Sequence record: ON239131 | Source of the DNA: Escherichia phage S164 | Reading direction: 5' to 3' (one strand) | Length of the DNA stretch: 30,272 bases | Shown here: positions 189 through 30,254 of the stretch, one piece after another | How the letters are laid out: each line of letters opens with the position of its first letter | Position numbering within the stretch: position 1 is the first letter of the stretch | Notes under the pieces: generated by a model | Database searches by the model: none | What the model was told of the DNA's origin: nothing | Seen by the model: only the letters and a program-made list of their open reading frames with translations | Program-made: the position numbers and the translations under genes

Positions 189-1223
189 TCAGCCGTTGTC
201 AGTGTCCAGTGAGTAGTTTTTAAATCGGATGACCTCCTGACCGAGCCAGCCGTTTATCTCGCGGATCCTGTCCTGTAGCGGGATAAGCTCATTGCGGACA
301 AAGACCTTTGCCACTTTCTCAATATCTCCCAGTGACCCGACGTTCTCCGGCTTGCCGCCCATCAACTGAAAGGGGATGCGATGCGCGTCCAGCAGGTCAG
401 CGGCGCTGGCTTTTTTGATATTAAAAAAATCGTCCTTCGTTGCCACTTCACTGAGCGGGATAATTTTAATGCCGTCGGCTTTCCCCTGTGGGGCATAGAG
501 AAACAGATTTTTAAAGTTATTGCGGCCTTTCGACTTAACCATGTTTTCGCGAAGCATTTCGATATCGTTGCGATCCTGCACGGCATCGGTGACGTACATG
601 ATGTATCCGGCATGAGCGCCGTTTTCGTAATACTTGCGGCGGAACAGCGTGGCCGACTCATTCAGCCAGGCAGAGTTAAGGGCGCTGAGATATTCCGGCA
701 GGCCGTACAGCTCCTGATTAATATCCGGCTCCAGCAGGTGAAACACGGAGCCGGGTGCGAAGGCTGTCGGCTCGTTGAAGGACGGCACCCACCAGTAAAC
801 ATCCTCTTCCACACCACGGCGGGTATATTTTGCCGGTGAGGTTTCCAGTCTGATGACCTTACCGGTGGTGCTGTAACGCTTTTCCAGAAACGCATTACCG
901 AACACCAGAAAATCCAGCACAAAGCGGCTGAAATCCTGCTGAGAAAGCCACGGATGCGGAATAAACGTTGAAGCCAGAATATTGCGTTTAACGTAAATCG
1001 GCGAGCTGTGATGCACGGCAGCACGCAGGCTTTTTGCCAGACCGGTAAAGCTGACCGGCGGCTCATACCATCTGCCGTTACTGATGCACTCGACGTAATC
1101 CAGAATGTCACGGCGGTCGAGTACCGGCACCGGCTCGCCAAAGGTGAATGCCTCCATTTTCGGGGCGCTGGCGGTCATTGTTTTTGCCGCAGGTTGCGGT
1201 GTTTTCCCTTTTTTCTTGCTCAT
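189..1223 (-). CDS. Q: Portal protein
   Basis: 344 aa, same length as P2 gpQ; first gene inward from cos; start overlaps the P stop. Confidence 0.9.
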   Translation of the reverse strand: MSKKKGKTPQPAAKTMTASAPKMEAFTFGEPVPVLDRRDILDYVECISNGRWYEPPVSFTGLAKSLRAAVHHSSPIYVKRNILASTFIPHPWLSQQDFSRFVLDFLVFGNAFLEKRYSTTGKVIRLETSPAKYTRRGVEEDVYWWVPSFNEPTAFAPGSVFHLLEPDINQELYGLPEYLSALNSAWLNESATLFRRKYYENGAHAGYIMYVTDAVQDRNDIEMLRENMVKSKGRNNFKNLFLYAPQGKADGIKIIPLSEVATKDDFFNIKKASAADLLDAHRIPFQLMGGKPENVGSLGDIEKVAKVFVRNELIPLQDRIREINGWLGQEVIRFKNYSLDTDNG

Positions 1224-2995
1224 CAGTAAAACTCCAGAATGGTGGATGTCAGCGGAGTGCTGATACCGGCGGTGAGTGGCTCATTTAACAGGGCGTGCAT
1301 GGTCGCCCAGGCGAGGTCGGCGTGGCTGGCTTCCTCGCTGCGGCTGGCCTCATAGGTGGCGCTGCGTCCGCTGCTGGTCATGGTCTTGCGGATAGCCATA
1401 AACGAGCTGGTGATGTCGGTGGCGCTGACGTCATATTCCAGACAGCCACGGCGGATAACGTCTTTTGCCTTGAGCACCATTGCGGTTTTCATTTCCGGCG
1501 TGTAGCGGATATCGCGCGCGGCGGGATAGAACGAGCGCACGAGCTGGAACACACCGACACCGAGGCCGGTGGCATCAATCCCGATGTATTCAACGTTATA
1601 TTTTTCGGTGAGTTTGCGGATGGATTCTGCCTGGGTGGCAAAGTCCATGCCTTTCCACTGGTGACGCTCAAGGATCCTGAATTTGCCACCGGCCACCACC
1701 GGCGGTGCCAGCACCACGCATCCGGCGCTGTCGCCACGGTGTGACGGGTCGTAACCAATCCATACCGGGCGGGAGCCGAACGGATTTGCGGCAAACGGTG
1801 CATAGTCTTCCCATTCTTCCAGCGTATCGACCATGCAGCGTTGCAGCTCCTCGAACGGGAACACCGACGCTTTGTCGTCAACAAATTCACACATGAACAG
1901 GTTTTTAAAATCGTCGGCGCTGTTTTCACGTTTGAGCTGCTCAATGTCGAACAGCGTGCAGCCGCCTTTCAGCGCGTCCTCAATGGTGACAATCTGCCGC
2001 CACTGGCCGTCCGCACAGAGAAGCCCACCGGCAAGGGCGTTATGACTGACGTCGATTTCCACGCGTTCGGCGGCGCTGGCGCGTCCCCGGTTGAACAGTT
2101 CACCCGACCAGAACGGGTAGGCGTCGTGCGCCAGCGTGGACGGGGTGGAGAAATAGGTCGAGCGCAGGTGACTCTGTGAGGCCATACCTGATGCCACCTT
2201 ACGCAGTACCTGAAAATTCGGGATCCAGAAAATCTCGTCGACGTACAGGTCGCCGTTATGGCTCTGTGCGGTGTTGGAGTTGGTGCCGAGAAAAATCAGT
2301 TTTGCACCGTTATTGCCCAGGACAATCGGGTCACCGGTCAGGTCAACGTCAACCAGCCGGGCAAAGGCAATGATGTATTCGCGGAACACATACGCCTGCG
2401 TTTTACTGGCCGACAGAAAAATCTGGTTATGGCCGGTTTTCAGGGCGCGCAGCAGCGCCTCGCGGGAAAAATAAAACGTCGCGCCAATCTGGCGGGATTT
2501 CAGGATATCGCGGATGCGGTGCTCAAGCCCGGCGCGATACCAGTGCAACTGATAGTCGAAAGACTGCTCAAAGAAAATCTGCTCCAGCTTTTCGATGGCC
2601 TCGTCACTGAAAAAATTCTTTTTCGGTTTGCGACGCCCGCCTTTGTTGCGGTTAGCGACGTTCGGATTAAGGTCTGCCTCGTTGCCGGTCTGACTGTAAC
2701 GGTTGACCCGTGCCAGTCGTTCAATCTGGCGTCCGAGCAGGTCAATTTCCTTGAAGTCACCGCCGGTTTTCTGCGGTTTGATGATGAGCTGGGTCAGCCT
2801 CGCTTCCAGACTCATTTCGACACGGCTGATGGGGGCAACGCTGTCCCAGCCGTCGCGCTGTTTCCAGCTCTGCACCGTCGGGCGTTTCATCTGCAACATG
2901 GCGGCAATCTGCGGCACGGAAAATCCCTGCCAGTACAGCAGCGCCGCCTGACGACGCGGGTCGTGTAAAAGAGTGGTGTCTGTGGTGATGGTCAT
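1223..2995 (-). CDS. P: Terminase large subunit (ATPase)
   Basis: ORF 1223-3025; I prefer the internal Met at 2995 (MTITTDTT...), which gives 590 aa as in P2 gpP and has a GAGG-type RBS. Divergent from O. Confidence 0.85.
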   Translation of the reverse strand: MTITTDTTLLHDPRRQAALLYWQGFSVPQIAAMLQMKRPTVQSWKQRDGWDSVAPISRVEMSLEARLTQLIIKPQKTGGDFKEIDLLGRQIERLARVNRYSQTGNEADLNPNVANRNKGGRRKPKKNFFSDEAIEKLEQIFFEQSFDYQLHWYRAGLEHRIRDILKSRQIGATFYFSREALLRALKTGHNQIFLSASKTQAYVFREYIIAFARLVDVDLTGDPIVLGNNGAKLIFLGTNSNTAQSHNGDLYVDEIFWIPNFQVLRKVASGMASQSHLRSTYFSTPSTLAHDAYPFWSGELFNRGRASAAERVEIDVSHNALAGGLLCADGQWRQIVTIEDALKGGCTLFDIEQLKRENSADDFKNLFMCEFVDDKASVFPFEELQRCMVDTLEEWEDYAPFAANPFGSRPVWIGYDPSHRGDSAGCVVLAPPVVAGGKFRILERHQWKGMDFATQAESIRKLTEKYNVEYIGIDATGLGVGVFQLVRSFYPAARDIRYTPEMKTAMVLKAKDVIRRGCLEYDVSATDITSSFMAIRKTMTSSGRSATYEASRSEEASHADLAWATMHALLNEPLTAGISTPLTSTILEFY

Positions 2996-3168
2996 GAATA
3001 CCTCGCCGTGATGAATACACGGCAAGGCTACTGAGTCGCGCCCCGCGATTCGCTAAGGTGCTGTTGTGTCAGTGATAAGCCATCCGGGACTGATGGCGGA
3101 GGATGCGCATCGTCGGGAAACTGATGCCGACATGTGACTCCTCTAATCACTATTCAGGACTCCTGACA

Positions 3169-4023
3169 ATGGCAAAAAAAGTCTCAAAATTCTTTCGTAT
3201 CGGCGTTGAGGGTGACACCTGTGACGGGCGTGTCATCAGTGCGCAGGATATTCAGGAAATGGCCGAAACCTTTGACCCGCGAGTCTATGGTTGCCGCATT
3301 AACCTGGAACATCTGCGCGGCATCCTGCCTGACGGTATTTTTAAGCGTTATGGCGATGTGGCCGAACTGAAGGCCGAAAAGATTGACGATGATTCGGCGC
3401 TGAAAGGCAAATGGGCGCTGTTTGCGAAAATCACCCCGACCGATGACCTTATCGCGATGAACAAGGCCGCGCAGAAGGTCTATACCTCAATGGAAATTCA
3501 GCCGAACTTTGCCAATACCGGCAAATGTTATCTGGTGGGTCTGGCCGTCACCGATGACCCGGCAAGCCTCGGCACGGAATACCTGGAATTCTGCCGCACG
3601 GCAAAACACAACCCCCTGAACCGCTTCAAATTAAGCCCTGAAAACCTGATTTCAGTGGCAACGCCTGTTGAGCTGGAATTTGAAGACCTGCCTGAAACCG
3701 TGTTCACCGCCCTGACCGAAAAGGTGAAATCCATTTTTGGCCGCAAACAGGCCAGCGATGACGCCCGTCTGAATGACGTGCATGAAGCGGTGACCGCTGT
3801 TGCTGAACATGTGCAGGAAAAACTGAGCGCCACTGAGCAGCGCCTCGCTGAGATGGAAACCGCCTTTTCCGCACTTAAGCAGGATGTGACTGACAGGGCG
3901 GATGAAACCAGCCAGGCATTCACCCGCCTGAAAAACAGTCTCGACCACACCGAAAGTCTGACCCAGCAGCGCCGCAGCAAGGCCACCGGTGGTGGCGGTG
4001 ACGCCCTGATGACGAACTGCTGA
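3169..4023 (+). CDS. O: Capsid scaffolding protein
   Basis: ORF 3103-4023; start at MAKKVSKFF gives 284 aa as in P2 gpO; coiled-coil-like C-terminus. Confidence 0.85.
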   Translation: MAKKVSKFFRIGVEGDTCDGRVISAQDIQEMAETFDPRVYGCRINLEHLRGILPDGIFKRYGDVAELKAEKIDDDSALKGKWALFAKITPTDDLIAMNKAAQKVYTSMEIQPNFANTGKCYLVGLAVTDDPASLGTEYLEFCRTAKHNPLNRFKLSPENLISVATPVELEFEDLPETVFTALTEKVKSIFGRKQASDDARLNDVHEAVTAVAEHVQEKLSATEQRLAEMETAFSALKQDVTDRADETSQAFTRLKNSLDHTESLTQQRRSKATGGGGDALMTNC

Positions 4024-4081
4024 CCGGCGTCAGTCAGTCCGGGAAAACCTTCACGATTAACCCTTAATTTCAGGAAAAACT

Positions 4082-5155
4082 ATGCGCCAGGAAACCCGCT
4101 TTAAATTTAATGCCTACCTGTCCCGTGTTGCCGAACTGAACGGCATCGACGCCGGTGATGTGTCGAAAAAATTCACCGTTGAACCGTCGGTCACCCAGAC
4201 CCTGATGAACACCATGCAGGAGTCCTCTGATTTTCTGACCCGCATCAACATTGTGCCGGTCAGCGAAATGAAAGGGGAAAAAATTGGTATTGGTGTCACC
4301 GGCTCCATCGCCAGCACCACCGACACCGCCGGTGGCACCGAGCGTCAGCCGAAGGACTTCTCGAAGCTGGCGTCCAGTAAGTACGAATGCGACCAGATTA
4401 ACTTCGATTTTTATATCCGCTACAAAACGCTGGACCTGTGGGCGCGTTATCAGGATTTCCAGCTCCGTGTCCGTAACGCCATTATCAAACGTCAGTCCCT
4501 TGATTTAATCATGGCCGGTTTTAACGGCGTGAAGCGTGCCGAAACCTCTGACCGCAGCAGCAATCCGATGCTGCAGGATGTGGCGGTCGGCTGGCTGCAG
4601 AAATACCGCAATGAAGCCCCGGCGCGCGTGATGAGCAAGGTTACTGACGAGGAAGGTCACACCACCTCTGAGGTCATCCGCGTGGGTAAGGGCGGTGATT
4701 ATGCCAGCCTCGATGCACTGGTGATGGATGCGACCAACAACCTGATTGAGCCGTGGTATCAGGAAGACCCTGACCTTGTGGTGATTGTGGGGCGTCAGTT
4801 ACTGGCGGACAAGTATTTCCCCATCGTTAACAAGGAGCAGGACAACAGCGAAATGCTGGCCGCTGACGTCATCATCAGCCAGAAACGCATCGGTAACCTG
4901 CCGGCGGTACGCGTCCCGTACTTCCCGGCGGATGCGATGCTCATCACGAAGCTGGAAAACCTGTCCATCTACTACATGGATGACAGCCATCGCCGCGTGA
5001 TTGAGGAAAACCCGAAACTCGACCGCGTGGAGAACTACGAGTCAATGAACATTGATTACGTGGTGGAAGACTACGCCGCCGGTTGTCTGGTGGAAAAAAT
5101 TAAGGTCGGTGACTTCTCCACACCGACTAAAGTGACCGCAGAGCCGGGAGCGTAA
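4082..5155 (+). CDS. N: Major capsid protein
   Basis: 357 aa, same length and position as P2 gpN. Confidence 0.9.
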   Translation: MRQETRFKFNAYLSRVAELNGIDAGDVSKKFTVEPSVTQTLMNTMQESSDFLTRINIVPVSEMKGEKIGIGVTGSIASTTDTAGGTERQPKDFSKLASSKYECDQINFDFYIRYKTLDLWARYQDFQLRVRNAIIKRQSLDLIMAGFNGVKRAETSDRSSNPMLQDVAVGWLQKYRNEAPARVMSKVTDEEGHTTSEVIRVGKGGDYASLDALVMDATNNLIEPWYQEDPDLVVIVGRQLLADKYFPIVNKEQDNSEMLAADVIISQKRIGNLPAVRVPYFPADAMLITKLENLSIYYMDDSHRRVIEENPKLDRVENYESMNIDYVVEDYAAGCLVEKIKVGDFSTPTKVTAEPGA

Positions 5156-5158
5156 CCG

Positions 5159-5902
5159 ATGACGAGTCCCGCACAGCGCCACATGATGCGGGTCTCGGCA
5201 GCGATGACCGCGCAGCGGGACGCCGCCCCGCTGCGACATGCAACTGTCTATGAGCAGATGCTGGTCAAGCTGGCCGCAGACCAGCGCACACTGAAAGCGA
5301 TTTATTCAAAAGAGCTGAAGGCCGCGAAAAAACGCGAACTGCTGCCGTTCTGGTTGCCGTGGGTGAACGGCGTGCTGGAGCAGGGCAAAGGTGCACAGGA
5401 TGACATTCTGATGACGGTCATGCTGTGGCGTCTGGATACCGGCGATATTGCCGGTGCGCTGGAGATTGCCCGTTATGCCCTGAAGTACGGTCTGACCATG
5501 CCGGGTAAACACCGCCGCACCCCGCCGTACATGTTCACCGAGGAGGTGGCGCTTGCGGCCATGCGCGCTCACGCTGCCGGTGAGTCTGTGGATCCCCGCC
5601 TGCTGACGGACACCCTCGAACTGACCGCCACGGCTGACATGCCTGATGAAGTGCGCGCAAAGCTGCACAAAATCACCGGTCTGTTTCTGCGTGACGCTGG
5701 TGATGCCGCAGGTGCGCTGGTACACCTGCAACGTGCGACACAGCTCGACTGTCAGGCAGGCGTCAAAAAAGAGATTGAACGACTGGAGCGGGAGCTGAAA
5801 CCGAAGCCGGAGCCGCAGCCCAAAGCGGCCACCCGCACTCCGCGTAAGACCCGGAGCGTGACACCGGCAAAACGTGGACGCCCGAAAAAGAAAACCAGTT
5901 AA
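5159..5902 (+). CDS. M: Terminase small subunit / endonuclease
   Basis: 247 aa, same as P2 gpM; basic Lys/Arg/Pro-rich C-terminal tail. Confidence 0.85.
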   Translation: MTSPAQRHMMRVSAAMTAQRDAAPLRHATVYEQMLVKLAADQRTLKAIYSKELKAAKKRELLPFWLPWVNGVLEQGKGAQDDILMTVMLWRLDTGDIAGALEIARYALKYGLTMPGKHRRTPPYMFTEEVALAAMRAHAAGESVDPRLLTDTLELTATADMPDEVRAKLHKITGLFLRDAGDAAGALVHLQRATQLDCQAGVKKEIERLERELKPKPEPQPKAATRTPRKTRSVTPAKRGRPKKKTS

Positions 5903-6001
5903 CAACCGAATGCGCCCCGCGCCAGGGCGGCACGCCGGTCAGTGAGGGTGAATCACCTGACACTGCACCGGCGTCCACCGCCCGACTTTTCAGAGGTGGT
6001 C

Positions 6002-6511
6002 ATGATGACGCTGATTATTCCGCGAAAGGAGGCTCCCGTGTCCGGTGAGGGTACGGTGGTCATCCCGCAACCGGCAGGCGACGAGCCGGTGATTAAAAAC
6101 ACGTTCTTTTTTCCCGATATCGACCCGAAGCGCGTCCGGGAACGTATGCGCCTTGAGCAGACCGTCGCCCCCGCCCGTCTGCGTGAGGCCATCAAGTCAG
6201 GCATGGCTGAAACAAATGCGGAGCTGTACGAGTACCGCGAACAGAAAATTGCCGCCGGTTTTACGCGTCTGGCGGACGTTCCGGCGGACGACATCGACGG
6301 TGAAAGTATCAAAGTTTTTTACTACGAGCGCGCCGTGTGTGCGATGGCGACCGCGTCGCTTTATGAGCGTTATCGCGGCGTGGATGCCAGTGCGAAAGGC
6401 GACAAGAAGGCTGACAGCATTGACAGCACCATTGATGAACTGTGGCGGGATATGCGCTGGGCGGTGGCGCGTATCCAGGACAAGCCGCGCTGCATCGTGA
6501 GTCAAATCTGA
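6002..6511 (+). CDS. L: Head completion / stabilisation protein
   Basis: ORF 5942-6511; start at MMTLIIPRKE gives 169 aa as in P2 gpL. Confidence 0.8.
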   Translation: MMTLIIPRKEAPVSGEGTVVIPQPAGDEPVIKNTFFFPDIDPKRVRERMRLEQTVAPARLREAIKSGMAETNAELYEYREQKIAAGFTRLADVPADDIDGESIKVFYYERAVCAMATASLYERYRGVDASAKGDKKADSIDSTIDELWRDMRWAVARIQDKPRCIVSQI

Positions 6512-6714
6512 TGAAGACCTTTGCGCTACAGGGCGACACGCTCGACGCCATTTGTGTCCGGTATTACGGGCGCACTGAGGGCGTGGTTGAGACCGTGCTC
6601 GCCGCAAATCCGGGACTGGCTGAACTGGGTGCGGTGCTGCCACACGGCACCGCCGTCGAACTGCCCGACGTTCAGACCGCGCCCGTGGCTGAAACTGTCA
6701 ATCTGTGGGAGTAA
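6511..6714 (+). CDS. X: Tail protein X
   Basis: Internal Met (MKTFALQGDTLDAI...) of ORF 6442-6714 gives 67 aa, the size of P2 gpX; ATGA overlap with the L stop. Confidence 0.75.
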   Translation: MKTFALQGDTLDAICVRYYGRTEGVVETVLAANPGLAELGAVLPHGTAVELPDVQTAPVAETVNLWE

Positions 6715-6717
6715 CGC

Positions 6718-6999
6718 ATGACAGCAGAAGAAAAAAGCGTCCTGTCGCTTTTCATGATTGGGGTGCTGATTGTTGTCGGCAAGGTGCTTGCCGGTGGTGA
6801 ACCCATCACCCCGCGTCTGTTTATCGGGCGCATGTTGCTCGGTGGTTTTGTCTCGATGGTTGCCGGTGTTGTTCTGGTGCAGTTTCCTGACCTGTCACTG
6901 CCTGCAGTGTGCGGCATCGGCTCCATGCTGGGTATCGCCGGTTATCAGGTGATTGAGATTGCCATTCAGCGCCGCTTTAAGGGCAGGGGGAAACCGTAA
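6718..6999 (+). CDS. Y: Holin
   Basis: 93 aa with hydrophobic transmembrane segments and a basic C-terminus; sits immediately before the endolysin. Confidence 0.85.
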   Translation: MTAEEKSVLSLFMIGVLIVVGKVLAGGEPITPRLFIGRMLLGGFVSMVAGVVLVQFPDLSLPAVCGIGSMLGIAGYQVIEIAIQRRFKGRGKP

Positions 7000-7496
7000 T
7001 GCCGGTAATTAACACGCATCAGAATATCGCCGCCTTTCTCGACATGCTGGCGGTATCCGAAGGGACGGCAAATCATCCGCTGACGAAAAACCGTGGCTAT
7101 GACGTGATAGTCACCGGACTGGACGGGAAGCCGGAAATTTTCACCGACTACAGTGACCACCCGTTCGCGCATGGCCGACCGGCGAAGGTGTTTAACCGTC
7201 GCGGTGAAAAATCCACGGCCTCCGGTCGCTATCAGCAGCTTTACCTGTTCTGGCCGCATTACCGCAAACAGCTTGCCCTGCCGGATTTCAGTCCGTTGTC
7301 ACAGGACAGACTCGCCATTCAGTTGATCCGCGAACGCGGTGCGCTGGATGACATCCGGGCGGGACGCATTGAGCGCGCCATTTCACGCTGTCGCAATATC
7401 TGGGCGTCCCTGCCGGGTGCCGGTTACGGTCAGCGTGAGCATTCACTGGAAAAACTGGTCACCGTCTGGCGTACCGCTGGCGGCGTACCGGCTTAA
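6999..7496 (+). CDS. K: Endolysin (lysozyme/transglycosylase type)
   Basis: 165 aa, same as P2 gpK; position in the lysis cassette. Confidence 0.85.
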   Translation: MPVINTHQNIAAFLDMLAVSEGTANHPLTKNRGYDVIVTGLDGKPEIFTDYSDHPFAHGRPAKVFNRRGEKSTASGRYQQLYLFWPHYRKQLALPDFSPLSQDRLAIQLIRERGALDDIRAGRIERAISRCRNIWASLPGAGYGQREHSLEKLVTVWRTAGGVPA

Positions 7497-7510
7497 ACGG
7501 AGTAAACACC

Positions 7511-7936
7511 ATGAAGAAATTATCCCTTTCACTGATGCTGAACGTGTCGCTGGCGCTGATGCTGGCACTGTCCCTGATTTACCCGCAGAGCGTGGCCGTC
7601 AATTTTGTCGCCGCCTGGGCGATTCTGGCGATGGTTATCTGTGTGGTTGTCGGTGGTGTCGGCGTGTATGCCACTGAGTATGTGCTGGAACGCTACGGGC
7701 GGGAGCTGCCGCCGGAATCGCTGGCCGTGAAGATTGTCACGTCGCTGTTTTTGCAGCCGGTGCCGTGGCGCAGACGGGCGGCGGCTCTGGTAGTGATGGT
7801 GGCGACGTTTATCTCGCTGGTTGCCGCCGGGTGGATTTTTACTGCGCTGATTTATCTCGTGGCGTCGCTGTTTTTCCGGCTGATACGTACGGCCTGCCGT
7901 CAGCGTCTTGAGGGGCGGGAACTATGTCAAAGCTGA
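7511..7936 (+). CDS. lysA: LysA-like membrane protein (lysis timing)
   Basis: 141 aa, several hydrophobic helices; P2 lysA position. Confidence 0.75.
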   Translation: MKKLSLSLMLNVSLALMLALSLIYPQSVAVNFVAAWAILAMVICVVVGGVGVYATEYVLERYGRELPPESLAVKIVTSLFLQPVPWRRRAAALVVMVATFISLVAAGWIFTALIYLVASLFFRLIRTACRQRLEGRELCQS

Positions 7937-8349
7937 TGATTGTGCTGGTCGTGTTGTTATCGCTGGCGGTGGCCGGTCTGTTTCTGGTGAAACACAAAAA
8001 TGCCAGCCTGCGCGCCTCGCTGGGCAGGGCGAATAACGTCGCCAGTGAACAGCTGACGACCATCACCATGCTGAAAAATCAGCTTCATGTTGCGCTCACC
8101 AGAGCAGACAAAAACGAGCTGGCGCAGGTGGCACTGCGTCAGGAACTGGAGAACACCGCGAAGCGTGAAGCACAGCGCGAGAAAACCATCACGAGGTTAC
8201 TCAATGAAAACGAAGATTTTCGCCGCTGGTACGGCGCTGGCCTGCCTGATGCTGTGCGCCGGTTGCACCAGCGCCCGGCCTGCACCGACGCCAGTGATTG
8301 TCGCCAACGCCTGCCCGAAAGTGAGCCTTTGCCCGATGCCGGGCAGTGA
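7924..8349 (+). CDS. lysB: LysB, Rz-like inner-membrane spanin
   Basis: 141 aa; N-terminal transmembrane helix then a charged helical region; P2 lysB position. Confidence 0.8.
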   Translation: MSKLMIVLVVLLSLAVAGLFLVKHKNASLRASLGRANNVASEQLTTITMLKNQLHVALTRADKNELAQVALRQELENTAKREAQREKTITRLLNENEDFRRWYGAGLPDAVRRLHQRPACTDASDCRQRLPESEPLPDAGQ

Positions 8350-8494
8350 CCCGGAGACGAACGGCGATTTAAGTGCCGATATCCGACAGCTTGAGAACGC
8401 GCTGGCACGCTGTGCCAGCCAGGTAAAAATGATTAAACACTGTCAGGACGAAAACGATGCTCAAACCCGACAGCCTGCGCAGGGCGCTGACTGA
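8204..8494 (+). CDS. lysC: LysC, Rz1-like outer-membrane lipoprotein spanin, embedded out of frame in the 3' end of lysB
   Basis: Internal Met (MKTKIFAAG...) of ORF 8087-8494 in the +1 frame of lysB; signal peptide with a Cys-containing lipobox-like motif (LCAGC), Pro-rich; extends into the start of R. Confidence 0.7.
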   Translation: MKTKIFAAGTALACLMLCAGCTSARPAPTPVIVANACPKVSLCPMPGSDPETNGDLSADIRQLENALARCASQVKMIKHCQDENDAQTRQPAQGAD

Positions 8495-8924
8495 TGCCGT
8501 CACGGTGCTGAAAACCAGCCCCGAGATGCTGCGGATATTCGTGGATAACGGGAGTATTGCCTCCACACTGGCGGCGTCGTTGTCATTCGAAAAGCGTTAC
8601 ACGCTCAATGTGATTGTGACCGACTTTACCGGTGATTTTGACCTGCTCATCGTGCCGGTGCTGGCGTGGCTGCGGGAAAATCAGCCCGACATCATGACCA
8701 CCGACGAAGGCCAGAAAAAAGGTTTCACGTTTTATGCAGACATCAACAATGACAGCAGCTTTGATATCAGCATCAGCCTGATGCTGACCGAGCGCACGCT
8801 GGTCAGCGAGGTTGACGGTGCGCTGCATGTGAAGAATATCCCGGAACCCCCGCCGCCGGAGCCGGTCACCCGCCCGGTGGAGCTTTATATCAATGGCGAA
8901 CTGGTGAGCAAGTGGGATGAATGA
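8457..8924 (+). CDS. R: Tail completion protein R
   Basis: 155 aa, same as P2 gpR; synteny. Confidence 0.85.
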   Translation: MLKPDSLRRALTDAVTVLKTSPEMLRIFVDNGSIASTLAASLSFEKRYTLNVIVTDFTGDFDLLIVPVLAWLRENQPDIMTTDEGQKKGFTFYADINNDSSFDISISLMLTERTLVSEVDGALHVKNIPEPPPPEPVTRPVELYINGELVSKWDE

Positions 8925-9369
8925 GTTTAAGCGTTTTGAAGACCGGCTGACCGGACTGACTGAATCGCTGTCACCGTCAGGGCGTCGGCGACTGAGCGCC
9001 GAACTGGCGAAACGTCTGCGTCAGAGTCAGCAGCGTCGGGTGATGGCACAGAAAGCCCCGGACGGCACACCCTACGCGCCACGCCAGCAGCAGAGCGCCA
9101 GAAAAAAGACTGGTCGTGTTAAGCGAAAAATGTTTGCGAAACTTATCACCAGTCGTTTTTTGCATATCCGCGCCAGCCCGGAACAGGCATCAATGGAATT
9201 TTACGGCGGGAAGTCGCCGAAAATCGCCAGTGTGCATCAGTTCGGTCTGTCGGAAGAAACCCGGAAAGACGGTAAGAAAATTGATTATCCGGCGCGTCCT
9301 CTGCTCGGCTTTACCGGTGAGGATGTGCAGATGATTGAAGAGATTATCCTGGCTCACCTCGACCGTTAG
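8917..9369 (+). CDS. S: Tail completion protein S
   Basis: 150 aa, same as P2 gpS; overlaps the R stop. Confidence 0.85.
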   Translation: MNEFKRFEDRLTGLTESLSPSGRRRLSAELAKRLRQSQQRRVMAQKAPDGTPYAPRQQQSARKKTGRVKRKMFAKLITSRFLHIRASPEQASMEFYGGKSPKIASVHQFGLSEETRKDGKKIDYPARPLLGFTGEDVQMIEEIILAHLDR

Positions 9370-9435
9370 TTGTGCCATCCCCGACACCTCATCGTCACAT
9401 TGCCGCCGGTATGACCCGGCGGCATCCTTCCCGTT

Positions 9436-13356: not shown

Positions 13357-13779
13357 ATGGGTGAAACAGATTATATTTTCAGTGCGTTCCTGAATGGTTT
13401 TTTACCGCTGGCGTGGAAAGAAGAGAAAGAGGCAACAGGTTCGTGGCCTGATGACGCAATTGAAATAAGCTATGAAGATTATTTGAAGTTTACGACCGAT
13501 GCGCCGAAGGGAAAAATATTGGGTTCGGTTGACGGGCGACCGGCATGGGTTGATATCCCACCGCCGACACATGAAGAACTGATTGCCAGTGCAGAAGCAA
13601 CAAGATTAAGACTGAAGGCTAATGCAGATGCTGAAATCGGCTGGCGACAGGATGCCGTTGATGCGGGCATTGCGACGGACGAGGAAACCGCCATACTCGC
13701 CGAGTGGAAAAAATACCGGGTCTTGCTGATGCGCGTCGACACAGCAAAACCCGTATGGCCTACGCTTCCGACTGCATAA
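13357..13779 (+). CDS. G: Tail fibre assembly chaperone
   Basis: 140 aa; C-terminal EWKKYRVLLMRVDTAKPVWPTLP resembles the conserved C-terminal domain of lambda Tfa / Mu U-type chaperones; RBS AAGG 8 nt upstream. Confidence 0.85.
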   Translation: MGETDYIFSAFLNGFLPLAWKEEKEATGSWPDDAIEISYEDYLKFTTDAPKGKILGSVDGRPAWVDIPPPTHEELIASAEATRLRLKANADAEIGWRQDAVDAGIATDEETAILAEWKKYRVLLMRVDTAKPVWPTLPTA

Positions 13780-14023
13780 TATCAATTAATATCGGTTCGC
13801 CGTTCTCATCGACGGCGAGCATTTTCCCAGCCGGTATTTCTGTTGCGGTAAAAAACCAGTTATCATCCGGCAGTTCTACGGCCCCTTCAGTGCTATGAAT
13901 GCCGGGGATAACTTCATTAAGTGTCTCAGGATTAAAAAGGCGCATAGCGAGCACTCCAATAAAAACCGTCAGCGGATGTTGTTCCATCAGATCGTAATAC
14001 AAGAAAAGTAGCTTTTGTTGCAT
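13760..14023 (-). CDS. Alternative tail-fibre assembly chaperone, N-terminal domain only (U'-like fragment)
   Basis: 87-aa minus-strand ORF; ...AGKMLAVDENGEPILIDIMQSEA resembles the N-terminal domain of Tfa/U chaperones but lacks the conserved C-terminal domain; 3' end overlaps the G 3' end; 5' start uncertain because it overlaps the next ORF by 92 nt. Confidence 0.45.
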   Translation of the reverse strand: MQQKLLFLYYDLMEQHPLTVFIGVLAMRLFNPETLNEVIPGIHSTEGAVELPDDNWFFTATEIPAGKMLAVDENGEPILIDIMQSEA

Positions 14024-14369
14024 CAGTTAAATCAGTTATGACCATCGGTACCCTGACCTTATAAGGGGTTGCTGATGACAATAACAGCGGAGTGGTAGTG
14101 ATAACCTGTGCAGGAGCAGGCAGAGAAATCGGATAATAAACCGCAGCATTTCCCGATATGTTAGCCACAGCATTTCCCCACACCTCTATAGTGCCATCGC
14201 TCCAGATTCGGTATTTACCATTCGCATTCGAGCCTGTTTTAGTCACCACGGCACATTTATCTGTATCGGTATTAACGTTACCAATCAGTGCCAATTTTCC
14301 ACTGGTATTTCCCGCTTCTGCTAAACGAACGTTTATGAAAATGCAGAGATAACGGGTAACTGGCATCAT
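13932..14369 (-). CDS. Alternative tail-fibre C-terminal receptor-binding tip (Sv'-like), not fused to H in this orientation
   Basis: 145-aa minus-strand ORF; ...GKYRIWSDGTIEVWG...FYWSARYAPF parallels the C-terminal tip of H; a stop lies 4 codons upstream of its ATG; region is AT-richer than the core genome. Confidence 0.55.
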   Translation of the reverse strand: MMPVTRYLCIFINVRLAEAGNTSGKLALIGNVNTDTDKCAVVTKTGSNANGKYRIWSDGTIEVWGNAVANISGNAAVYYPISLPAPAQVITTTPLLLSSATPYKVRVPMVITDLTDATKATFLVLRSDGTTSADGFYWSARYAPF

Positions 14370-14396
14370 CTCCGGTTTTTATTCAGGGGGATGCTC

Positions 14397-14990
14397 ATGC
14401 TTATTGGCTATGTACGCGTGTCAACAAATGACCAGAACACGGAATTGCAGCGTAACGCGCTGGAGTGCGCGGGATGTGAGCGGATTTTTGAGGACAAAAT
14501 CAGCGGCACGAAGTCCGACCGACCGGGACTGAAAAAACTGCTCAGAACATTATCAGCAGGTGACACTCTGGTAGTCTGGAAGCTGGACAGGCTGGGGCGT
14601 AGTATGCGGCATCTGGTCATTCTGGTTGAGGAACTGCGCGAACGCGGCGTTAATTTTCGCAGCCTGACAGATGCTATTGATACCAGCACGCCGATGGGGC
14701 GTTTTTTCTTTCATGTGATGGGTGCCCTGGCTGAAATGGAGCGAGAACTCATTGTCGAGCGGACACGCGCCGGACTGGAAGCGGCCAGAGCTAAAGGTCG
14801 TATTGGTGGCAGACGTCCGAAACTCACCGCGAGTGAGTGGGAGCAGGCCGGGCGGTTGCTGGCTGCAGGGGAATCACGTCAACGCGTGGCACTGATTTTT
14901 GATATTGGCCTGTCCACGCTCTATAAAAAATTCCCCGCCTCAGTGACAAAAAATAAATTGTGTCATCCCTTAGCCAACCGGGACAAATAG
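14397..14990 (+). CDS. Serine-recombinase DNA invertase (Hin/Gin/Cin/Pin family)
   Basis: N-terminus MLIGYVRVSTNDQNTELQRNAL... with catalytic Ser; GDTLVVWKLDRLGRS; MGRFFFHVMGALAEMERELIVERT; C-terminal HTH (GLSTLYKKF). ORF opens at 14391, but the Met at 14397 has better RBS spacing (AGGGGG). Confidence 0.9.
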   Translation: MLIGYVRVSTNDQNTELQRNALECAGCERIFEDKISGTKSDRPGLKKLLRTLSAGDTLVVWKLDRLGRSMRHLVILVEELRERGVNFRSLTDAIDTSTPMGRFFFHVMGALAEMERELIVERTRAGLEAARAKGRIGGRRPKLTASEWEQAGRLLAAGESRQRVALIFDIGLSTLYKKFPASVTKNKLCHPLANRDK

Positions 14991-21433: not shown

Positions 21434-21652
21434 ATGTTTCATTGTCCTTTATGCCAGCATGCCGCACATGCGCGTACAAGCCGCTATATCACTGACACGA
21501 CAAAAGAGCGTTATCACCAGTGTCAGAACGTGAATTGCAGCGCCACGTTCATCACTTATGAGTCGGTACAGCGATACATCGTGAAGCCGGGAGAAGTCCA
21601 CGCCGTCAGGCCGCACCCGTTGCCGTCAGGGCAGCAAATTATGTGGATGTAA
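21434..21652 (+). CDS. ogr: Late-gene transcriptional activator, Ogr/Delta zinc-finger family
   Basis: Internal Met (MFHCPLCQHAAHARTSRYITDTTKERYHQCQNVNCSATF...) of ORF 21371-21652 gives 72 aa with a CxxC...CxxxxC zinc-finger pattern; P2 Ogr position after D. Confidence 0.85.
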   Translation: MFHCPLCQHAAHARTSRYITDTTKERYHQCQNVNCSATFITYESVQRYIVKPGEVHAVRPHPLPSGQQIMWM

Positions 21653-21665
21653 TTACAAACAGAAA

Positions 21666-21690
21666 GCCCCTCAGTCGAGGGGCTTTTTTT
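21666..21690 (+). terminator. Rho-independent terminator after ogr
   Basis: GCCCCTC-AGTC-GAGGGGC hairpin followed by TTTTTTT. Confidence 0.8.
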
Positions 21691-21868
21691 GTCGATGTGG
21701 TCAATGTGTGGACGTGACCAGAAATAAATCCTTTTATTTCATGCAATTAGATATCAAAAAATGTCACCAATAACTGACTTGGTAGCCCCCGCCGCAGCGG
21801 TATTTTCTGTTGTATTACAATTAGTTAAATTACTCATATCGCTTCAATTGGCTCTAGTTAACTCTGGT
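21691..21868. other. Candidate attP region between the ogr terminator and the int 3' end
   Basis: AT-rich non-coding stretch with short inverted repeats (for example TGGTCA...TGACCA) where P2 carries attP; I did not see the P2 core sequence, so the core is not located. Confidence 0.4.
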
Positions 21869-22864
21869 TTATGGACGCATTATGGACATTCCTGACACCG
21901 GGTTAAGAGTCACAGCATCTTGTAAGAAATCCGGTGCAAAGTGTGCGTAGGTCATAGTTTGCTGAATGTTAGAATGACCCAGGATGCGCTGCAATGTGAT
22001 TATGTTACCTCCATTCATTATAAAATGTGTGGCAAATGTATGCCTCAAAACATGCACTGCCTGTCCGTCAGGTAAATCGGGTTTTACTTCCCTGAGAGCG
22101 TTGCGCACTTTGTAGTAACTGGCATTAAAAAGCCTGCCTGAATTTTTGGTCTTGATCCGTTTAATCAGGTCCTGCGAAACGGGAATTGTCCTGCGCTTTC
22201 CGTTTTTAGTTTTCATAAACGTAACCATCTGGTTAATGATGTGTTCAGCTTTCAAATTAGACACTTCACTCCAGCGTCCACCAGTAGAAAGGCAGACCAG
22301 AGTTGCATTTAACTCATCACCATCAAGCATGGATAACAGCCGCGTAATCTCTTCACTGGACAAAAAAGCCATTTCCGTAACAGCTTCACGTAACCGCTTA
22401 ACCTCACGGAACGGGTTGTGAGAGTGATATTCACCGGCGTCAATTAACTTGGTGAACATCCCGCTCATTATTGCCAGATGCCGATTTACGCTGGCTGGTT
22501 TTAGGCCATCGTTCATCATTACAACGCGATAATCAGTTATCGTTTTCTTTGTTAGCTGGTCCGCCCTGGACACTCCCATCTCGGCAAATTTGGCGATTAT
22601 TGTCGTCAAACGCCCTCGTTCAATATCTCCACGCTCATGTGATTTTCCGTGATATATCCACCATCTGCCTAACAACTCTGTAAGAGTTCGGCGGTCGGCC
22701 GGCTTCTCCAACCACTCTTTGTTGTGGTAGTTAACCAGGACATGACGTTCGAATGCTTGAGCTTCACCTTTAGTTTTAAATTTCCGCCTGATACGTTTTC
22801 CATCTGCACCCTGCGGTCTGACGTCCACTTCATAACGACCATCATCGAGCTTTTTAATAGACAT
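21869..22864 (-). CDS. int: Tyrosine-recombinase integrase
   Basis: 331 aa; C-terminal catalytic region HVLRHTFATH...LGHSNIQQTMTYAHF (His-x-x-Arg and catalytic Tyr); transcribed toward the attP region. Confidence 0.9.
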   Translation of the reverse strand: MSIKKLDDGRYEVDVRPQGADGKRIRRKFKTKGEAQAFERHVLVNYHNKEWLEKPADRRTLTELLGRWWIYHGKSHERGDIERGRLTTIIAKFAEMGVSRADQLTKKTITDYRVVMMNDGLKPASVNRHLAIMSGMFTKLIDAGEYHSHNPFREVKRLREAVTEMAFLSSEEITRLLSMLDGDELNATLVCLSTGGRWSEVSNLKAEHIINQMVTFMKTKNGKRRTIPVSQDLIKRIKTKNSGRLFNASYYKVRNALREVKPDLPDGQAVHVLRHTFATHFIMNGGNIITLQRILGHSNIQQTMTYAHFAPDFLQDAVTLNPVSGMSIMRP

Positions 22865-22957
22865 AAAGCCCTCCGATGACGCTGTTTACTTCTACTACTT
22901 GAAAATTAATGCAATTTTCTTTCGTACATTTACTGCACACATATGCTGAATAAATCG

Positions 22958-23269
22958 TCAGCCAGTCTTTTGGTCTGAGTGGTGCAAGGTTGTTGAGTCT
23001 TGCCCAATGTGCGCGAGCGCCGGGGCTATTTGTCCGCCAGCGGGATCAGTTTCATCAAACATGAACCAGTCACGGTACTTGCGAAATCTTTCTGGCTTGA
23101 AAAATTTCATACCTGCGTCAAAAGACATCTTTACTTTTCCCTGCTCATATCCAGCATAGGTGTTGTAGTTAATTCCAGTTAATTCAGCAACTTGCTTCCT
23201 TGTCATTCTTTCTGATTCCCGAATAAGTGCGAGTTTCTCTGCTTGAGATGTGATTTGTGTATTTGACAT
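22958..23269 (-). CDS. C: Immunity repressor C
   Basis: 103 aa; HTH (RKQVAELTGINYNTYAGYEQG); C-terminus GGQIAPALAHIGQD...HSDQKTG resembles P2 C as I recall it; divergent from cox. Confidence 0.8.
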   Translation of the reverse strand: MSNTQITSQAEKLALIRESERMTRKQVAELTGINYNTYAGYEQGKVKMSFDAGMKFFKPERFRKYRDWFMFDETDPAGGQIAPALAHIGQDSTTLHHSDQKTG

Positions 23270-23368
23270 GAATTGTCGCGTAATTTATGTTGTATGCGAC
23301 ACGCCAGAACAACGCAGAGCGGCTTCAAATAGCTCTGATTGAATGGCACCAAAGTTGAGGATATCAAA
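23270..23368. promoter_or_regulatory. Candidate lysis-lysogeny switch region with divergent promoters (Pc leftward, Pe rightward)
   Basis: Intergenic region between divergent C and cox; imperfect inverted repeat GTCGCGTA...TATGCGAC is a possible operator. No promoter elements verified. Confidence 0.4.
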
Positions 23369-23725
23369 ATGAGTATTGGATCAGAAATGAATAACGATGT
23401 TGGAGAAAAAGTATCTGATCTCACAAAAAGTAAAAAATGTGACATCAAACTTGCAGCCGCACCGTCGGATTTGCTCTCGAAAGAGGGTTTTGCTCTTTAC
23501 ATCGGTAAGACGCCTCGTGCTGTTGCTGAAATGGCGAAAGCAGGCAAGTTACCAGCCTTTTATATGACGGACCCATTAAAGCCGGGCGGTCATGCTGAGT
23601 TATGGATTAATCGTCGTGAGTGGGACAAGTACGCAGCCCAGCTAGTTGATGAAGCTCCGACAGAATGGCATGACTGGAAAAATCGCATTAGTTACAGCAA
23701 ATCAAGACATGGCCGTGCGGCTTAA
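23369..23725 (+). CDS. cox: Cox-like excisionase / early regulator
   Basis: ORF 23339-23725; start at 23369 has a GAGGA RBS; ALYIGKTPRAVAEMAKAGKLPAFYMTDP resembles the P2 Cox HTH segment as recalled. Longer than P2 Cox, so start and identity are tentative. Confidence 0.55.
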   Translation: MSIGSEMNNDVGEKVSDLTKSKKCDIKLAAAPSDLLSKEGFALYIGKTPRAVAEMAKAGKLPAFYMTDPLKPGGHAELWINRREWDKYAAQLVDEAPTEWHDWKNRISYSKSRHGRAA

Positions 23726-27766: not shown

Positions 27767-28218
27767 TGGCAAAAATTCACGAGGTAAAGCTGCACGCAAA
27801 ATATTTCGACCTTGTGCTGGAAGGAAAGAAACGCGCAGAGTTTCGGAAAAATGACCGTAATTATGAGCGCGGGGACACGTTGATTTTGCATGAATGGGGG
27901 CAGGGTGTGTATACGGGGCGAAAGGTTGAAGCCCGGATAACAGATGTTACTGACCTGTCAGACTGGCTGGAAGATTATGTCTTGCTAAGTATTGAGCTGC
28001 TTAATACAGGCGCATATGAGATTGTGAACAGGAAAGAACTTAGTGAGCGTGGTCTGTTATTCAGAATTAATCATGAAATTATGCATAAGCTCGGCCTTGC
28101 TGTTATGTATGAACCAGAGACGGGAATGTCTGGCGGGGCAATGGTTGCCACGGATGGAGCATGGAACTATTCAGATGAACAGATGGAGCGTGCACAGCAA
28201 AACGGGTGGCTTGGATAA
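27763..28218 (+). CDS. orf91-position protein with a possible ASCH/PUA-like (DUF3850-type) N-terminal domain
   Basis: ATGA overlap with the A stop; N-terminus MMAKIHEVKLHAKYFDLVLEGKKRAEFRKNDRNYERGDTLILHEW resembles DUF3850/ASCH-like domains from memory; C-terminal half unrecognised. Confidence 0.55.
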   Translation: MMAKIHEVKLHAKYFDLVLEGKKRAEFRKNDRNYERGDTLILHEWGQGVYTGRKVEARITDVTDLSDWLEDYVLLSIELLNTGAYEIVNRKELSERGLLFRINHEIMHKLGLAVMYEPETGMSGGAMVATDGAWNYSDEQMERAQQNGWLG

Positions 28219-28424
28219 TGCACAGAATACCAGGCGAGATACCGCACCATAAAACTAAAAATATCAAGCTGATGGCTATTGTTCAGCGTTTACAGCGGAT
28301 TATGGTCAACGAAAATCTGACGCCCGATGAGCTAGTCGGGTGTGCCGAAATAGTCCGGGATAATTACGGGCGGTTTAACTATATCGGTCAGTCCAGAGTT
28401 GCGCCACCACCACGCAGACGATAG
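28218..28424 (+). CDS. Small hypothetical protein
   Basis: 68 aa from the internal Met of ORF 28206-28424; TAATG overlap with the preceding gene; GC content like the core genome; no motif recognised. Confidence 0.4.
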   Translation: MHRIPGEIPHHKTKNIKLMAIVQRLQRIMVNENLTPDELVGCAEIVRDNYGRFNYIGQSRVAPPPRRR

Positions 28425-28427
28425 ATA

Positions 28428-28468
28428 ACGCCGCCAGTCGTGAAACTTGTTTTCAGGGCTGGCGGCGT
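28428..28468 (+). other. Stem-loop (10-bp perfect stem ACGCCGCCAG / CTGGCGGCGT, 21-nt loop) overlapping the start of repeat copy A
   Basis: Perfect inverted repeat just downstream of the stop at 28424; no T-run follows, so a classical terminator is unlikely. Confidence 0.45.
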
Positions 28469-28495
28469 TGAACAACGAGTGAAGCGAGGCGTTAG
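28441..28495 (+). repeat. Copy A of a ~55-bp direct repeat preceding moron gene 1
   Basis: Ungapped 42/55 identity by hand alignment with 29413-29467 (TGAAACTTG...GGCGG.GTTGA.CAA.GAGT...GTTAG). Confidence 0.75.
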
Positions 28496-28653
28496 TTGAC
28501 ATTCATATTTTTACTGCGTTGGTGCTGTTTTTTGACGGTTGAAAGGAGTTATCTCGGAGAGCTAAAGCTAACAACTTACAAATATTCAAAAGTAAGCTTC
28601 CTGTTGCTAACATAAGGTCGATTTTTTATGTGGATGATGCAAAAAGGATAGCT

Positions 28654-29385
28654 ATGGATACTATAATCGCTTTTCTATCACTCGCTTTTTTTGTTGCTTT
28701 TTTCATCGGGTTAATCAAGCCATCACTGGTGCGAATGCCAAGCCGCAAACGTGCAAGTGCGGTTTATCTCGGAGGAGGTTTTGTATTGAGCATAATTGGT
28801 TCAATACTCTATCCAACAGAAAAAAGCCAGCCAGTTGCTAAAACTGAAACATCAACCGTTGTAGAACACCAAGTCCAAAAAACATTCGAATATGGTGAAA
28901 AAACACTCAAGGAATATCGGAGCGAGCCAAAGAAAACTCGACACGATATTGTGAATAGTTACATTGACTTTAAGAAAGTTCCAGTCACCGCATCAGATGC
29001 ATTTTATGCCTGCATGAGTGAGTATACATTTACCAAAGATGATGAGTTGAAACTCGGTGATGTTCTTGGGTGGTGCTTTAATGATTATGAAAATGACCCG
29101 AGTTCACTAAATAATAAAATCAATCTTGATACATTTCAGAGTAATTTTAGTGGTTGGGATGGTTCTTATCGTCCATTGGAAAAACTAATTAAAGATAATA
29201 TGAACGATGATTCATCTTATAAACATGTATCAACGGTATATCATTTAGTTTTGAATAAAGACCCGCACGCCATTGTGAAAACGACGTTTCGCGGCACTAA
29301 TGCTTATGGTGGCATGGTCAAACAGACTGTAGCAGCGCGAGTTGACGTGCGAACGGGTGAGATCGATTCAATACTCGACAATTAA
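28654..29385 (+). CDS. Moron gene 1: predicted membrane protein (two N-terminal transmembrane helices plus a ~180-aa C-terminal domain), unknown function
   Basis: ORF 28630-29385 opens on GTG; the ATG at 28654 has RBS AAAAAGGA. Hydrophobic helices IIAFLSLAFFVAFFIGLI and LGGGFVLSIIGSILY. AT-rich relative to the core genome. Occupies the P2 tin/old position. Confidence 0.7.
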   Translation: MDTIIAFLSLAFFVAFFIGLIKPSLVRMPSRKRASAVYLGGGFVLSIIGSILYPTEKSQPVAKTETSTVVEHQVQKTFEYGEKTLKEYRSEPKKTRHDIVNSYIDFKKVPVTASDAFYACMSEYTFTKDDELKLGDVLGWCFNDYENDPSSLNNKINLDTFQSNFSGWDGSYRPLEKLIKDNMNDDSSYKHVSTVYHLVLNKDPHAIVKTTFRGTNAYGGMVKQTVAARVDVRTGEIDSILDN

Positions 29386-29412
29386 ATAATATAGTGACAG
29401 CTCCGTCAGTGA

Positions 29413-29467
29413 TGAAACTTGCTTTTAGTCTTGGCGGGGTTGAGCAATGAGTCTTGCAAGGTGTTAG
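29413..29467 (+). repeat. Copy B of the ~55-bp direct repeat preceding moron gene 2
   Basis: See copy A; lies 28 bp after the stop of moron gene 1. Confidence 0.75.
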
Positions 29468-29507
29468 CATGCGTAGAATGGAAGCTGCTTGGACGTGGGG
29501 TATTCAT

Positions 29508-30125
29508 ATGAATTTAAAAATTTTCGGCATAATTGTCCTTTCTGCTTTGATGTTCGTTTTAGGTTTTTTTCTCGGTGGTTTTAATTGGGAATGGGCTGAT
29601 AAGAATTATGCAGGTGAGGTGGCGTTGTGGAGTATGTTAGGAGGGTGGTTATCCGCAATTGCAACTCTGTTTGCCGTGTTGGTTTCATTATATATGGCGT
29701 ATCAAGCTACTCAGAATGAGATTGAAAAAATCAGGGTTACTCATGGAGTAAGTATGAGTGTCACTCATGACAATGAGTTAAGTTGTAATCTCATTATTCA
29801 GAACTTGAGAAATATGAAAGTGAATATTACTGGTGTTTTTTTGTCTCTAGGTAAATCATCAGGTAAGTACTCTTTGGATAAAGTAATTGACAATTGTAAT
29901 ATAACGCTTTCATATAAAGGTGAAACAGAAAAGGTACAATTTGTAATCCATTCTGGGTATATTTGGTGGTCAATGTATAAATTATTCGATATGGATAAGA
30001 ACATAGGTTTTGAAAAGGGTAAGATCTTTATAACAACCAACCTCAATACATATGAATTTGATTTGCCAAAAGAATATTTAAGAGCTTTTGAGAAAGCTTA
30101 TTCGGAGTATCAGACAAAAAAATAA
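29508..30125 (+). CDS. Moron gene 2: predicted membrane protein (N-terminal transmembrane hairpin plus a ~140-aa C-terminal domain), unknown function
   Basis: ORF 29454-30125 opens on TTG; first ATG at 29469, but I prefer MNLKIFGIIV at 29508. Helices IFGIIVLSALMFVLGFFLGGF and LGGWLSAIATLFAVLVSLYMAY. Strongly AT-rich with A/T-rich codon usage; last gene before cos. Confidence 0.7.
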   Translation: MNLKIFGIIVLSALMFVLGFFLGGFNWEWADKNYAGEVALWSMLGGWLSAIATLFAVLVSLYMAYQATQNEIEKIRVTHGVSMSVTHDNELSCNLIIQNLRNMKVNITGVFLSLGKSSGKYSLDKVIDNCNITLSYKGETEKVQFVIHSGYIWWSMYKLFDMDKNIGFEKGKIFITTNLNTYEFDLPKEYLRAFEKAYSEYQTKK

Positions 30126-30254
30126 TGAGCTGCATGCAAAAGGTGCATGTTTTTGCATGTGCTAAGTTCACTGGTTTTGTGTATATCGCTTCAGATCTAG
30201 CGTGGTTCCGGGGAGGGCATGCAACTGCATTAAAACCGCTCCATGAAGCGGGCG

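Follow-up and report, generated by a model that had tools for sequence, protein, structure and literature searches.

The attP region of the P2-like Escherichia phage S164 and its host site at the start of pflA

One of the closely related systems is the attP-int region of phage P2, in which a 27-bp core (AAAAAATAAGCCCGTGTAAGGGAGATT, annotated as attP core at AF063097 24356-24382) is followed by an annotated Cox site located between core and P' arm. The P2 host site locI is a separate chromosomal locus at MG1655 2165238 (PMC3448106 Table 1). Another specificity among P2-like phages is represented by PhiD145 and PhiD160, for which MG1655 950293 is given as the integration site (Nilsson et al. 2011, PMC3448106 Table 1), and the same site was assigned to PhiECA29, a prophage of Pectobacterium atrosepticum SCRI1043 (PMC3448106). 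The dusA-specific integrases have been described to target a conserved coding gene at its 5' end (Farrugia et al. 2015, PMC4482086), where the elements supply a replacement 5' end and the gene can stay functional (PMC4482086).

The window analysed here, a stretch of 30,272 nt from Escherichia phage S164 (ON239131), comprises an entire P2-like genome, from cosL at one end to cosR at the other. In local blastn, the ends of P2 (AF063097) are matched by bases 1-9371 and by the final 47 bases of the window, and the backbone outside a 2-kb cassette is 95-97% identical to P2. The attP-int region resembles that of P2 in its order (ogr, terminator, P arm, IHF position, core, Cox position and a P' arm overlapping the int 3' end), in an identical P arm, in repeats with 11-bp spacing on both arms and in the arm-binding end of Int (73% identity). 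It differs from P2 in the core, in Int's core-binding domain (35-40% identity), in the C and cox genes, and in a host site located inside a coding sequence. Compared to PhiD145, PhiD160 and PhiECA29, the host site is the same and nothing different in kind was found. Taken as a whole, and including the leader sequence described below, the region is very probably the attP of a P2-like phage carrying a PhiD145-type, not a P2-type, integration-immunity cassette (Table 1).

Table 1. Features of the attP region, the adjoining cassette and the integrase of phage S164 (positions in the window unless given as residues)
Feature	Position	Strand	Basis or remark
ogr, late-gene activator, left neighbour of attP	21434..21652	+	matches annotated ogr/ogrK of P2 and lysogens
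Rho-independent terminator of ogr and the F operon, 10-bp stem followed by a T run	21663..21692		inverted repeat
P arm, two direct arm-type Int sites 11 bp apart	21692..21719	+	identical to P2 'Int P arm' protein_bind
Equivalent of the P2 IHF site	21723..21756		only 21723-21741 conserved with P2; mosaic breakpoint 21741/21742
Integration-immunity cassette (core, P' arm, int, C, cox), about 2 kb	21742..23721		local blastn against P2 (AF063097)
Phage leader ORF MSNLTNCNTTENTAAAGATKSVIGDIF, 27 codons in the free phage	21754..21837	-	translation, RefSeq, open frame across genera
Common core ACCAATAACTGAC	21766..21778		shared unchanged by attP, attB and the two prophage junctions
Repeated motifs between core and P' arm, candidate Cox (excisionase) boxes	21818..21861		direct repeats
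P' arm, two direct arm-type sites TTATGGAC, 11 bp apart	21869..21887	+	direct repeat; overlaps the int stop codon
int, P2-type tyrosine integrase, 331 aa, pflA specificity	21869..22864	-	53% identical to P2 Int over the full length; Pfam
Int arm-binding end	residues 1-55		73% identity to P2 Int
Int core-binding domain	residues 56-170		35-40% identity to P2 Int
Int catalytic part	residues 171-331		51-60% identity to P2 Int
C gene	22958..23269	-	ORF list, lysogen annotation; same strand as int and leader
cox, Phage_Cox family, right end of the non-P2 module	23339..23725	+	Pfam PF10743, E = 2e-29

The attP region and the P2 core

An earlier sequence-only reading described the int-proximal DNA at 21691-21868 as AT-rich and non-coding, with short inverted repeats. 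The G+C content of 38.2%, compared to 52.7% in the whole window, agrees with this description and places the region among the lowest 4% of all 178-bp windows. Short inverted repeats were found as well: GAAATAAA/TTTATTTC spans 21721-21740, GATATC forms a palindrome near 21750, and the stem of the terminator, a perfect inverted repeat AAAGCCCCTC/GAGGGGCTTT, occupies 21663-21686. The term non-coding applies in so far as the region is flanked by the ogr terminator and the stop codon of int (21869-21871), but a minus-strand ORF of 27 codons (21837-21754) lies inside it. The annotated ogr/ogrK gene of P2 and lysogens ends right before the equivalent of window position 21653. The ogr terminator is identical to the annotated P2 terminator and remains on the ogr-side junction after integration.

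The P arm is base-for-base equal to the annotated P2 feature and contains the Int sites TGTGGTCA (21696-21703) and TGTGGACG (21707-21714), both of which fit the consensus of P2-type arm sites, tgTGGaCa (PMC3448106). The P' arm agrees in spacing and position with the P2 P' arm, in which TGTGGACA is present twice, and its GTCCA-N6-GTCCA pair is kept in all nine lysogen sequences inspected (eight genera). All four arm-type sites are located on one strand and retain the P2 consensus and the 11-bp spacing; only the core is changed. For the IHF consensus WATCAANNNNTTR, no match with one mismatch or less was found in attP, and the count in the whole window is not above chance. The best IHF candidates read from the sequence are TTTCATGCAATTA (21736-21748) and TATCAAAAAATGT (21752-21764), with two mismatches each. 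Between core and P' arm, the repeats comprise CAATTAGTTA at 21818-21827 and TAGTTAA at 21822-21828 and 21855-21861; they may represent Cox boxes, as their position is equivalent to the P2 Cox footprint. An inverted repeat around the core (ACCAA-N8-TTGGT) was considered as a pair of core-type Int half-sites and dropped, since it is absent at the junctions of Scandinavium, Pectobacterium and Rahnella.

In the sequence-only reading, the P2 core was not seen in this region. The core sequence given there is the correct one for P2, and its absence was verified: the 27-bp AAAAAATAAGCCCGTGTAAGGGAGATT has no match with up to three mismatches on either strand of the window. In a search for the canonical core by ungapped comparison, the best values were 18/27 in the whole window and 16/27 within 21660-21900, the latter an accidental match on the ogr terminator; P2 locI specificity, as far as it is defined by this core, was thus not found. 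From 21653 to 21741, through the terminator, the P-arm Int site and the left half of the IHF footprint, identity to P2 is 99%. Similarity ends at this point and, in local blastn against AF063097, does not resume before 23722, at the end of cox. The P2 core is therefore missing from a phage otherwise 95-97% identical to P2 because a 2-kb integration-immunity cassette has been swapped. On its left side the cassette begins at 21741/21742, still in attP: this boundary interrupts the P2 IHF footprint and precedes the core by 24 bp; therefore, the P arm is inherited with the late-gene backbone and core and P' arm travel with int.

The 99% identity to P2 over the P arm, the terminator and one half of the IHF region, together with an AAAAAAT run preceding both cores, might also be expected of a diverged P2 attP which still uses the locI site. 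The probability of this explanation is close to zero, since the aligned core positions agree at only 11 of 27 bases and the Int core-binding domain has only 35-40% identity to that of P2 Int. In E. coli genomes, moreover, further chromosomal matches were given only by the P-arm half of the attP query (bases 1-90), among them one near 2.1 Mb in several strains derived from K-12, and these matches are taken to be P2-type elements or remnants. The searches for the P2 core and the four-way junction comparison reported below already refute a persisting locI specificity.

In Int, Pfam assigned Int_N to residues 57-159 and Phage_integrase to residues 167-310, with a weak Arm-DNA-bind match at residues 21-48. 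A P2-like arm-binding end combined with a diverged core-binding domain fits a DNA site with P2-type arm sites and a changed core. As in a P2-type Int recombination module, a tyrosine integrase with arm-binding, core-binding and catalytic parts adjoins the att site, and a core, here of 13 bp, is common to attP and the bacterial attB. The ORF at 22958-23269 (C gene) matched Pfam HTH_3 narrowly above the threshold, and HTH_31 and HTH_19 below theirs. A scan of IMG/VR with Int yielded 80 loci, all of them 99-100% identical and most of them ending at the int stop codon, and is uninformative on attP diversity.

Host site at the start of pflA

For a four-way comparison, the window attP was aligned with the empty attB of K-12 and with the int-side and ogr-side junctions of one lysogen, strain WP7-S18-ESBL-09, which harbors a prophage of about 32.8 kb. 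The 13-bp core at 21766-21778 corresponds to NC_000913.3 951066-951078, and the flanks switch at the core as in site-specific recombination. An extended similarity of 17 out of 19 bases covers 21760-21778; strand exchange must take place within the 13-bp common core. On the pflA strand the core is read as G TCA GTT ATT GGT, i.e. the third base of the start codon plus codons 2 to 5 of the gene for the pyruvate formate-lyase activating enzyme. Int recombines the attP core with its exact 13-bp counterpart in pflA (atG TCA GTT ATT GGT) and thereby places the prophage between pflB and pflA; core and placement are both seen in the junction sequences.

The attP was searched against 5426 complete E. 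coli genomes, as had been suggested. It has no full-length match in any of them, while its halves match separately: in lysogens, pflA adjoins the int-proximal half, and DNA downstream of pflB adjoins the ogr-proximal half. The earlier proposal that the integrase uses a site different from that of P2 is borne out by these prophages, which are found between pflB and pflA and not at P2 locI, and is in line with the low identity (35-40%) of the Int core-binding domain to P2 Int. The further suggestion of a tRNA or small-RNA 3' end as target did not hold, as attB is the 5' end of protein-coding pflA. ARAGORN found no tRNA or tmRNA in the window, and the Rfam scan of the window gave only sub-threshold matches, located on the terminator hairpin. 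Integration at the 3' end of such an RNA gene, in the manner of 186-type and Fels-2-type relatives, has a precedent in the tRNA/tmRNA genes used by many P2-family phages with 186-type integrases (PMC3448106). For S164 it has a negligible probability: besides the negative ARAGORN and Rfam results, 405 out of 405 interrupted E. coli sites are at pflA, the arms carry P2-type repeats, and the junction sequences already refute it.

The intact empty site was detected in 5021 of the 5426 complete E. coli genomes with a 251-bp probe across the site. With 200-bp probes, the int-side junction was found intact in 405 and the ogr-side junction in 404 of these genomes. As 405 and 5021 add up to 5426, every interrupted site in the collection has this att type, and a prophage occupies the start of pflA in about 7.5% (1 in 13) of the complete E. 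coli genomes. For genome annotation, the integration site and core position of the phage are settled. In about 1 of 13 complete E. coli genomes phage sequence stands in place of the start codon of pflA, and a PflA of 265 aa is then called by annotation pipelines. In natural isolates of this kind, when used for work on pflA or anaerobic metabolism, pflA is devoid of its native promoter and start codon. In one strain, E. coli TUM11352, the pflA-int junction is located on NZ_CP134387.1 (88 kb, labelled as plasmid) and the ogr-pflB junction on the chromosome NZ_CP134384.1, which suggests a mis-assembly or a replicon split at the prophage. At least one E. coli genome gave 20-21 separate matches to the pflA 5' region, which would mean an amplification of the locus or an assembly duplication.

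The complete attP is also present in 14 records of the phage collection, including coliphages and Yersinia pestis phages. Two records named 'Peduovirus P2' (OU784746.1 and NC_070906.1) contain the PhiD145-type attP (98.4% identity) and not the P2 core; therefore, the species label is no predictor of the integration site.

The coordinate published for PhiD145 and PhiD160 follows the older K-12 numbering; its publication predates the current sequence version. Adding the offset of 777 bp between the older and the current numbering leads from 950293 to 951070, a position inside the 13-bp core. The integrase of the SCRI1043 prophage is 74% identical to the Int of the window and is encoded directly upstream of a 265-aa radical-SAM gene (pflA). 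The pflA start site is the attB already published for the PhiD145 type, and the specificity is thus known; the basis of this identity is the coordinate, with the offset given above, and the link to PhiECA29 rather than the sequence of the int-attP records AM158280 and AM159077 (PhiD160: AM159075). AJ298559, looked up for a PhiD145-type int and attP, contains structural genes only. The integration site of PhiD145, PhiD160 and PhiECA29 was reportedly described by Karlsson et al. in 2006 and Mandali et al. in 2010. The att repeat of the Pectobacterium prophage phiPa2, which is flanked by focA, is ACCGATTACTGAC and covers the same 13 positions (PMC6385640). Two other published sites of P2-like prophages, those of PhiECO1 (rcdA-ybjL) and PhiECO5 (serS-dmsA), were compared, and neither of them is the pflA site. 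A literature search combining pflA, prophage and P2-like returned no paper, and pflA combined with attB returned unrelated papers only. The att site is not given in the paper on pro147, and PhiD145 is not mentioned among the Int cluster names.

The pflA specificity has a limit within the integrase family. Relatives with 69-71% identity to Int in Yersinia enterocolitica and Hafnia paralvei have the same layout of cox, C and int and, as in S164, the nearest downstream host gene on the int strand. This gene is not pflA, as it is in S164, but pyrE, which encodes a 213-aa phosphoribosyltransferase, is followed by slmA and begins about 180-230 bp downstream of the integrase gene. Therefore, the target has been switched in these relatives, and the pflA specificity belongs to a bounded clade.

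The pflA gene in the lysogen

At the int-side junction the ATG of pflA is changed to AAG, and the native ribosome-binding site and upstream region are lost. The first 20 codons of the phage leader ORF (ATG plus 19 codons) are fused in frame to pflA from codon 2 onward, the leader ATG being located at 21837 (minus strand), 31 nt past the int stop codon. The fused product (MSNLTNCNTTENTAAAGAT-K-SVIGRIH...) is otherwise equal to PflA of K-12, and RefSeq annotates pflA of the lysogen as a 265-aa protein starting at the phage ATG. The native promoter and start codon of pflA come to lie at the ogr-side junction, where they now drive a stub of eight codons (MSVIGDIF, followed by a stop codon), reading towards the ogr terminator.

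Integration deprives pflA of its native promoter, ribosome-binding site and start codon and joins it to the phage ATG with the 19-codon leader; in the proposed mechanism, lysogens would produce an N-terminally extended PflA. The pflA transcript would originate from the prophage, either by read-through from the C-int lysogenic operon or from a weak promoter in the P' arm. In this way, a conserved coding sequence could serve as landing site while pflA function is not lost. No terminator-like site was found on the minus strand between C, int and the core and leader, and C heads the lysogenic operon (PMC1904263); therefore, read-through from Pc would be the simplest source of pflA mRNA. The promoter scan gave a single site matching 9 of 12 positions in the P' arm (21906-21879), which is no better than chance, and a total count below the shuffle mean; in other genera the placement of this promoter-like site is inconsistent. 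Efficient expression of the fusion is made less likely by these promoter results, by the missing Shine-Dalgarno match described below and by the overlap of the leader with the P2 Cox footprint.

In a scan of one genome per species, complemented by look-ups of Int relatives, relatives with 73-100% identity were located just upstream of pflA in the following eight genera (Escherichia, Citrobacter, Scandinavium, Pseudescherichia, Rahnella, Dickeya, Pectobacterium and Serratia). Every relative examined in these genera has an in-frame ATG and a stop-free leader of 17-19 codons, with strongly diverged leader sequences (MSNLTNCNTTENTAAAGATK; MNSVTGCFTNESPAEAGATK; MNNSNTCFSTEKPDIAEAVK; MTNDCIIKETPDAAGAAM). 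The junction codon is ATG in the Rahnella and Serratia phages and AAG in the others. Statistics were calculated for nine aligned leaders from seven genera, and the Serratia leader, which is two codons shorter with the frame open, was read separately. The nine leaders contain no stop codon in the leader frame, compared to two to five in each of the other frames. On shuffling, an open frame is expected by chance at 0.13-0.42 per lineage, and the combined chance is approximately 1 in 1000 for five well-separated lineages if these are treated as independent. Substitutions in the leader are distributed over the three codon positions as 56/86/70 and show no third-position excess; the peptide sequence itself is therefore unconstrained. 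Judged from these alignments, start codon, frame and length seem to be conserved, and not the peptide. The TGT and GAA conserved in the leader could be protein-binding DNA rather than codons. Since the leader stretch coincides with the P2 Cox footprint, some conservation at the DNA level is expected anyway.

Two explanations were weighed for this pattern. Tentatively, the leader may be a dedicated translation-start cassette, an ATG with about 19 unconstrained codons, whose sole role would be to rebuild pflA and to place it under prophage transcription, and which would be kept throughout the integrase clade. Rather unlikely is that integration simply inactivates pflA and that the in-frame ATG and leader are incidental by-products of protein-binding DNA between core and P' arm. 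Such a disruption would be in line with the promoter scan, with the unconstrained leader amino acids, with the constraint expected from the Cox footprint and with the leader ATG, which has no Shine-Dalgarno match in front of it (duplex energies of -2 to -4 kcal/mol, no better than shuffles, compared to -6.4 for native pflA). This is in contrast to the start codon and the complete lack of stops in the leader frame in every lineage of the eight genera, with two to five stops in the other two frames, and to a leader length held at 17-19 codons. Furthermore, an insertion present in 7.5% of complete E. coli genomes would probably be costly for a facultative anaerobe if pyruvate formate-lyase could not be activated.

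If the leader is indeed a translation-start cassette, anaerobic metabolism of the host would be wired to the lysogenic state via Pc read-through of C and int, and would change upon induction. The cassette would then have been kept over the whole history of the integrase clade, in at least eight genera of enterobacteria. An expressed leader fusion would be a clean example of a phage preserving the host gene whose coding sequence is its landing site. The dusA elements are the closest analogy, in mechanism only: their integrase lineage is unrelated, and their target is dusA, whereas S164 combines pflA as target with a P2-type integrase and thus does not belong to the dusA-specific elements. In addition, the dusA elements copy the replaced residues, whereas here a new start codon and a 19-residue extension are provided. 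As far as can be judged from sequence comparison, the conserved in-frame leader appears to rebuild pflA, and it is the one aspect for which no description was found; the literature covered did not include the original papers on the site (Karlsson 2006, Mandali 2010).

Other loci of the S164 genome

The old/tin region of P2 is replaced at 27987-30225 by about 2.2 kb of DNA devoid of similarity to P2. Two ORFs in this slot (28630-29385, 251 aa, and 29454-30125, 223 aa) gave no match to Pfam. The old/tin slot is a known hotspot of anti-phage genes in P2-like phages (PMC13586616).

A second group of genes is located in the slot of P2 Z/fun. It comprises a tail-fibre assembly gene (13357-13779), an ORF on the minus strand (13932-14369) with a weak, sub-threshold match to the tail-fibre C-terminal family Gp53-like_C (20.9 bits compared to a cutoff of 24.9) and, adjoining this ORF, a serine recombinase on the plus strand (14391-14990; Pfam Resolvase and HTH_7, E = 8e-53). 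The whole group (13357-14990) looks like an invertible tail-fibre switch of the Mu G/P1 C type.
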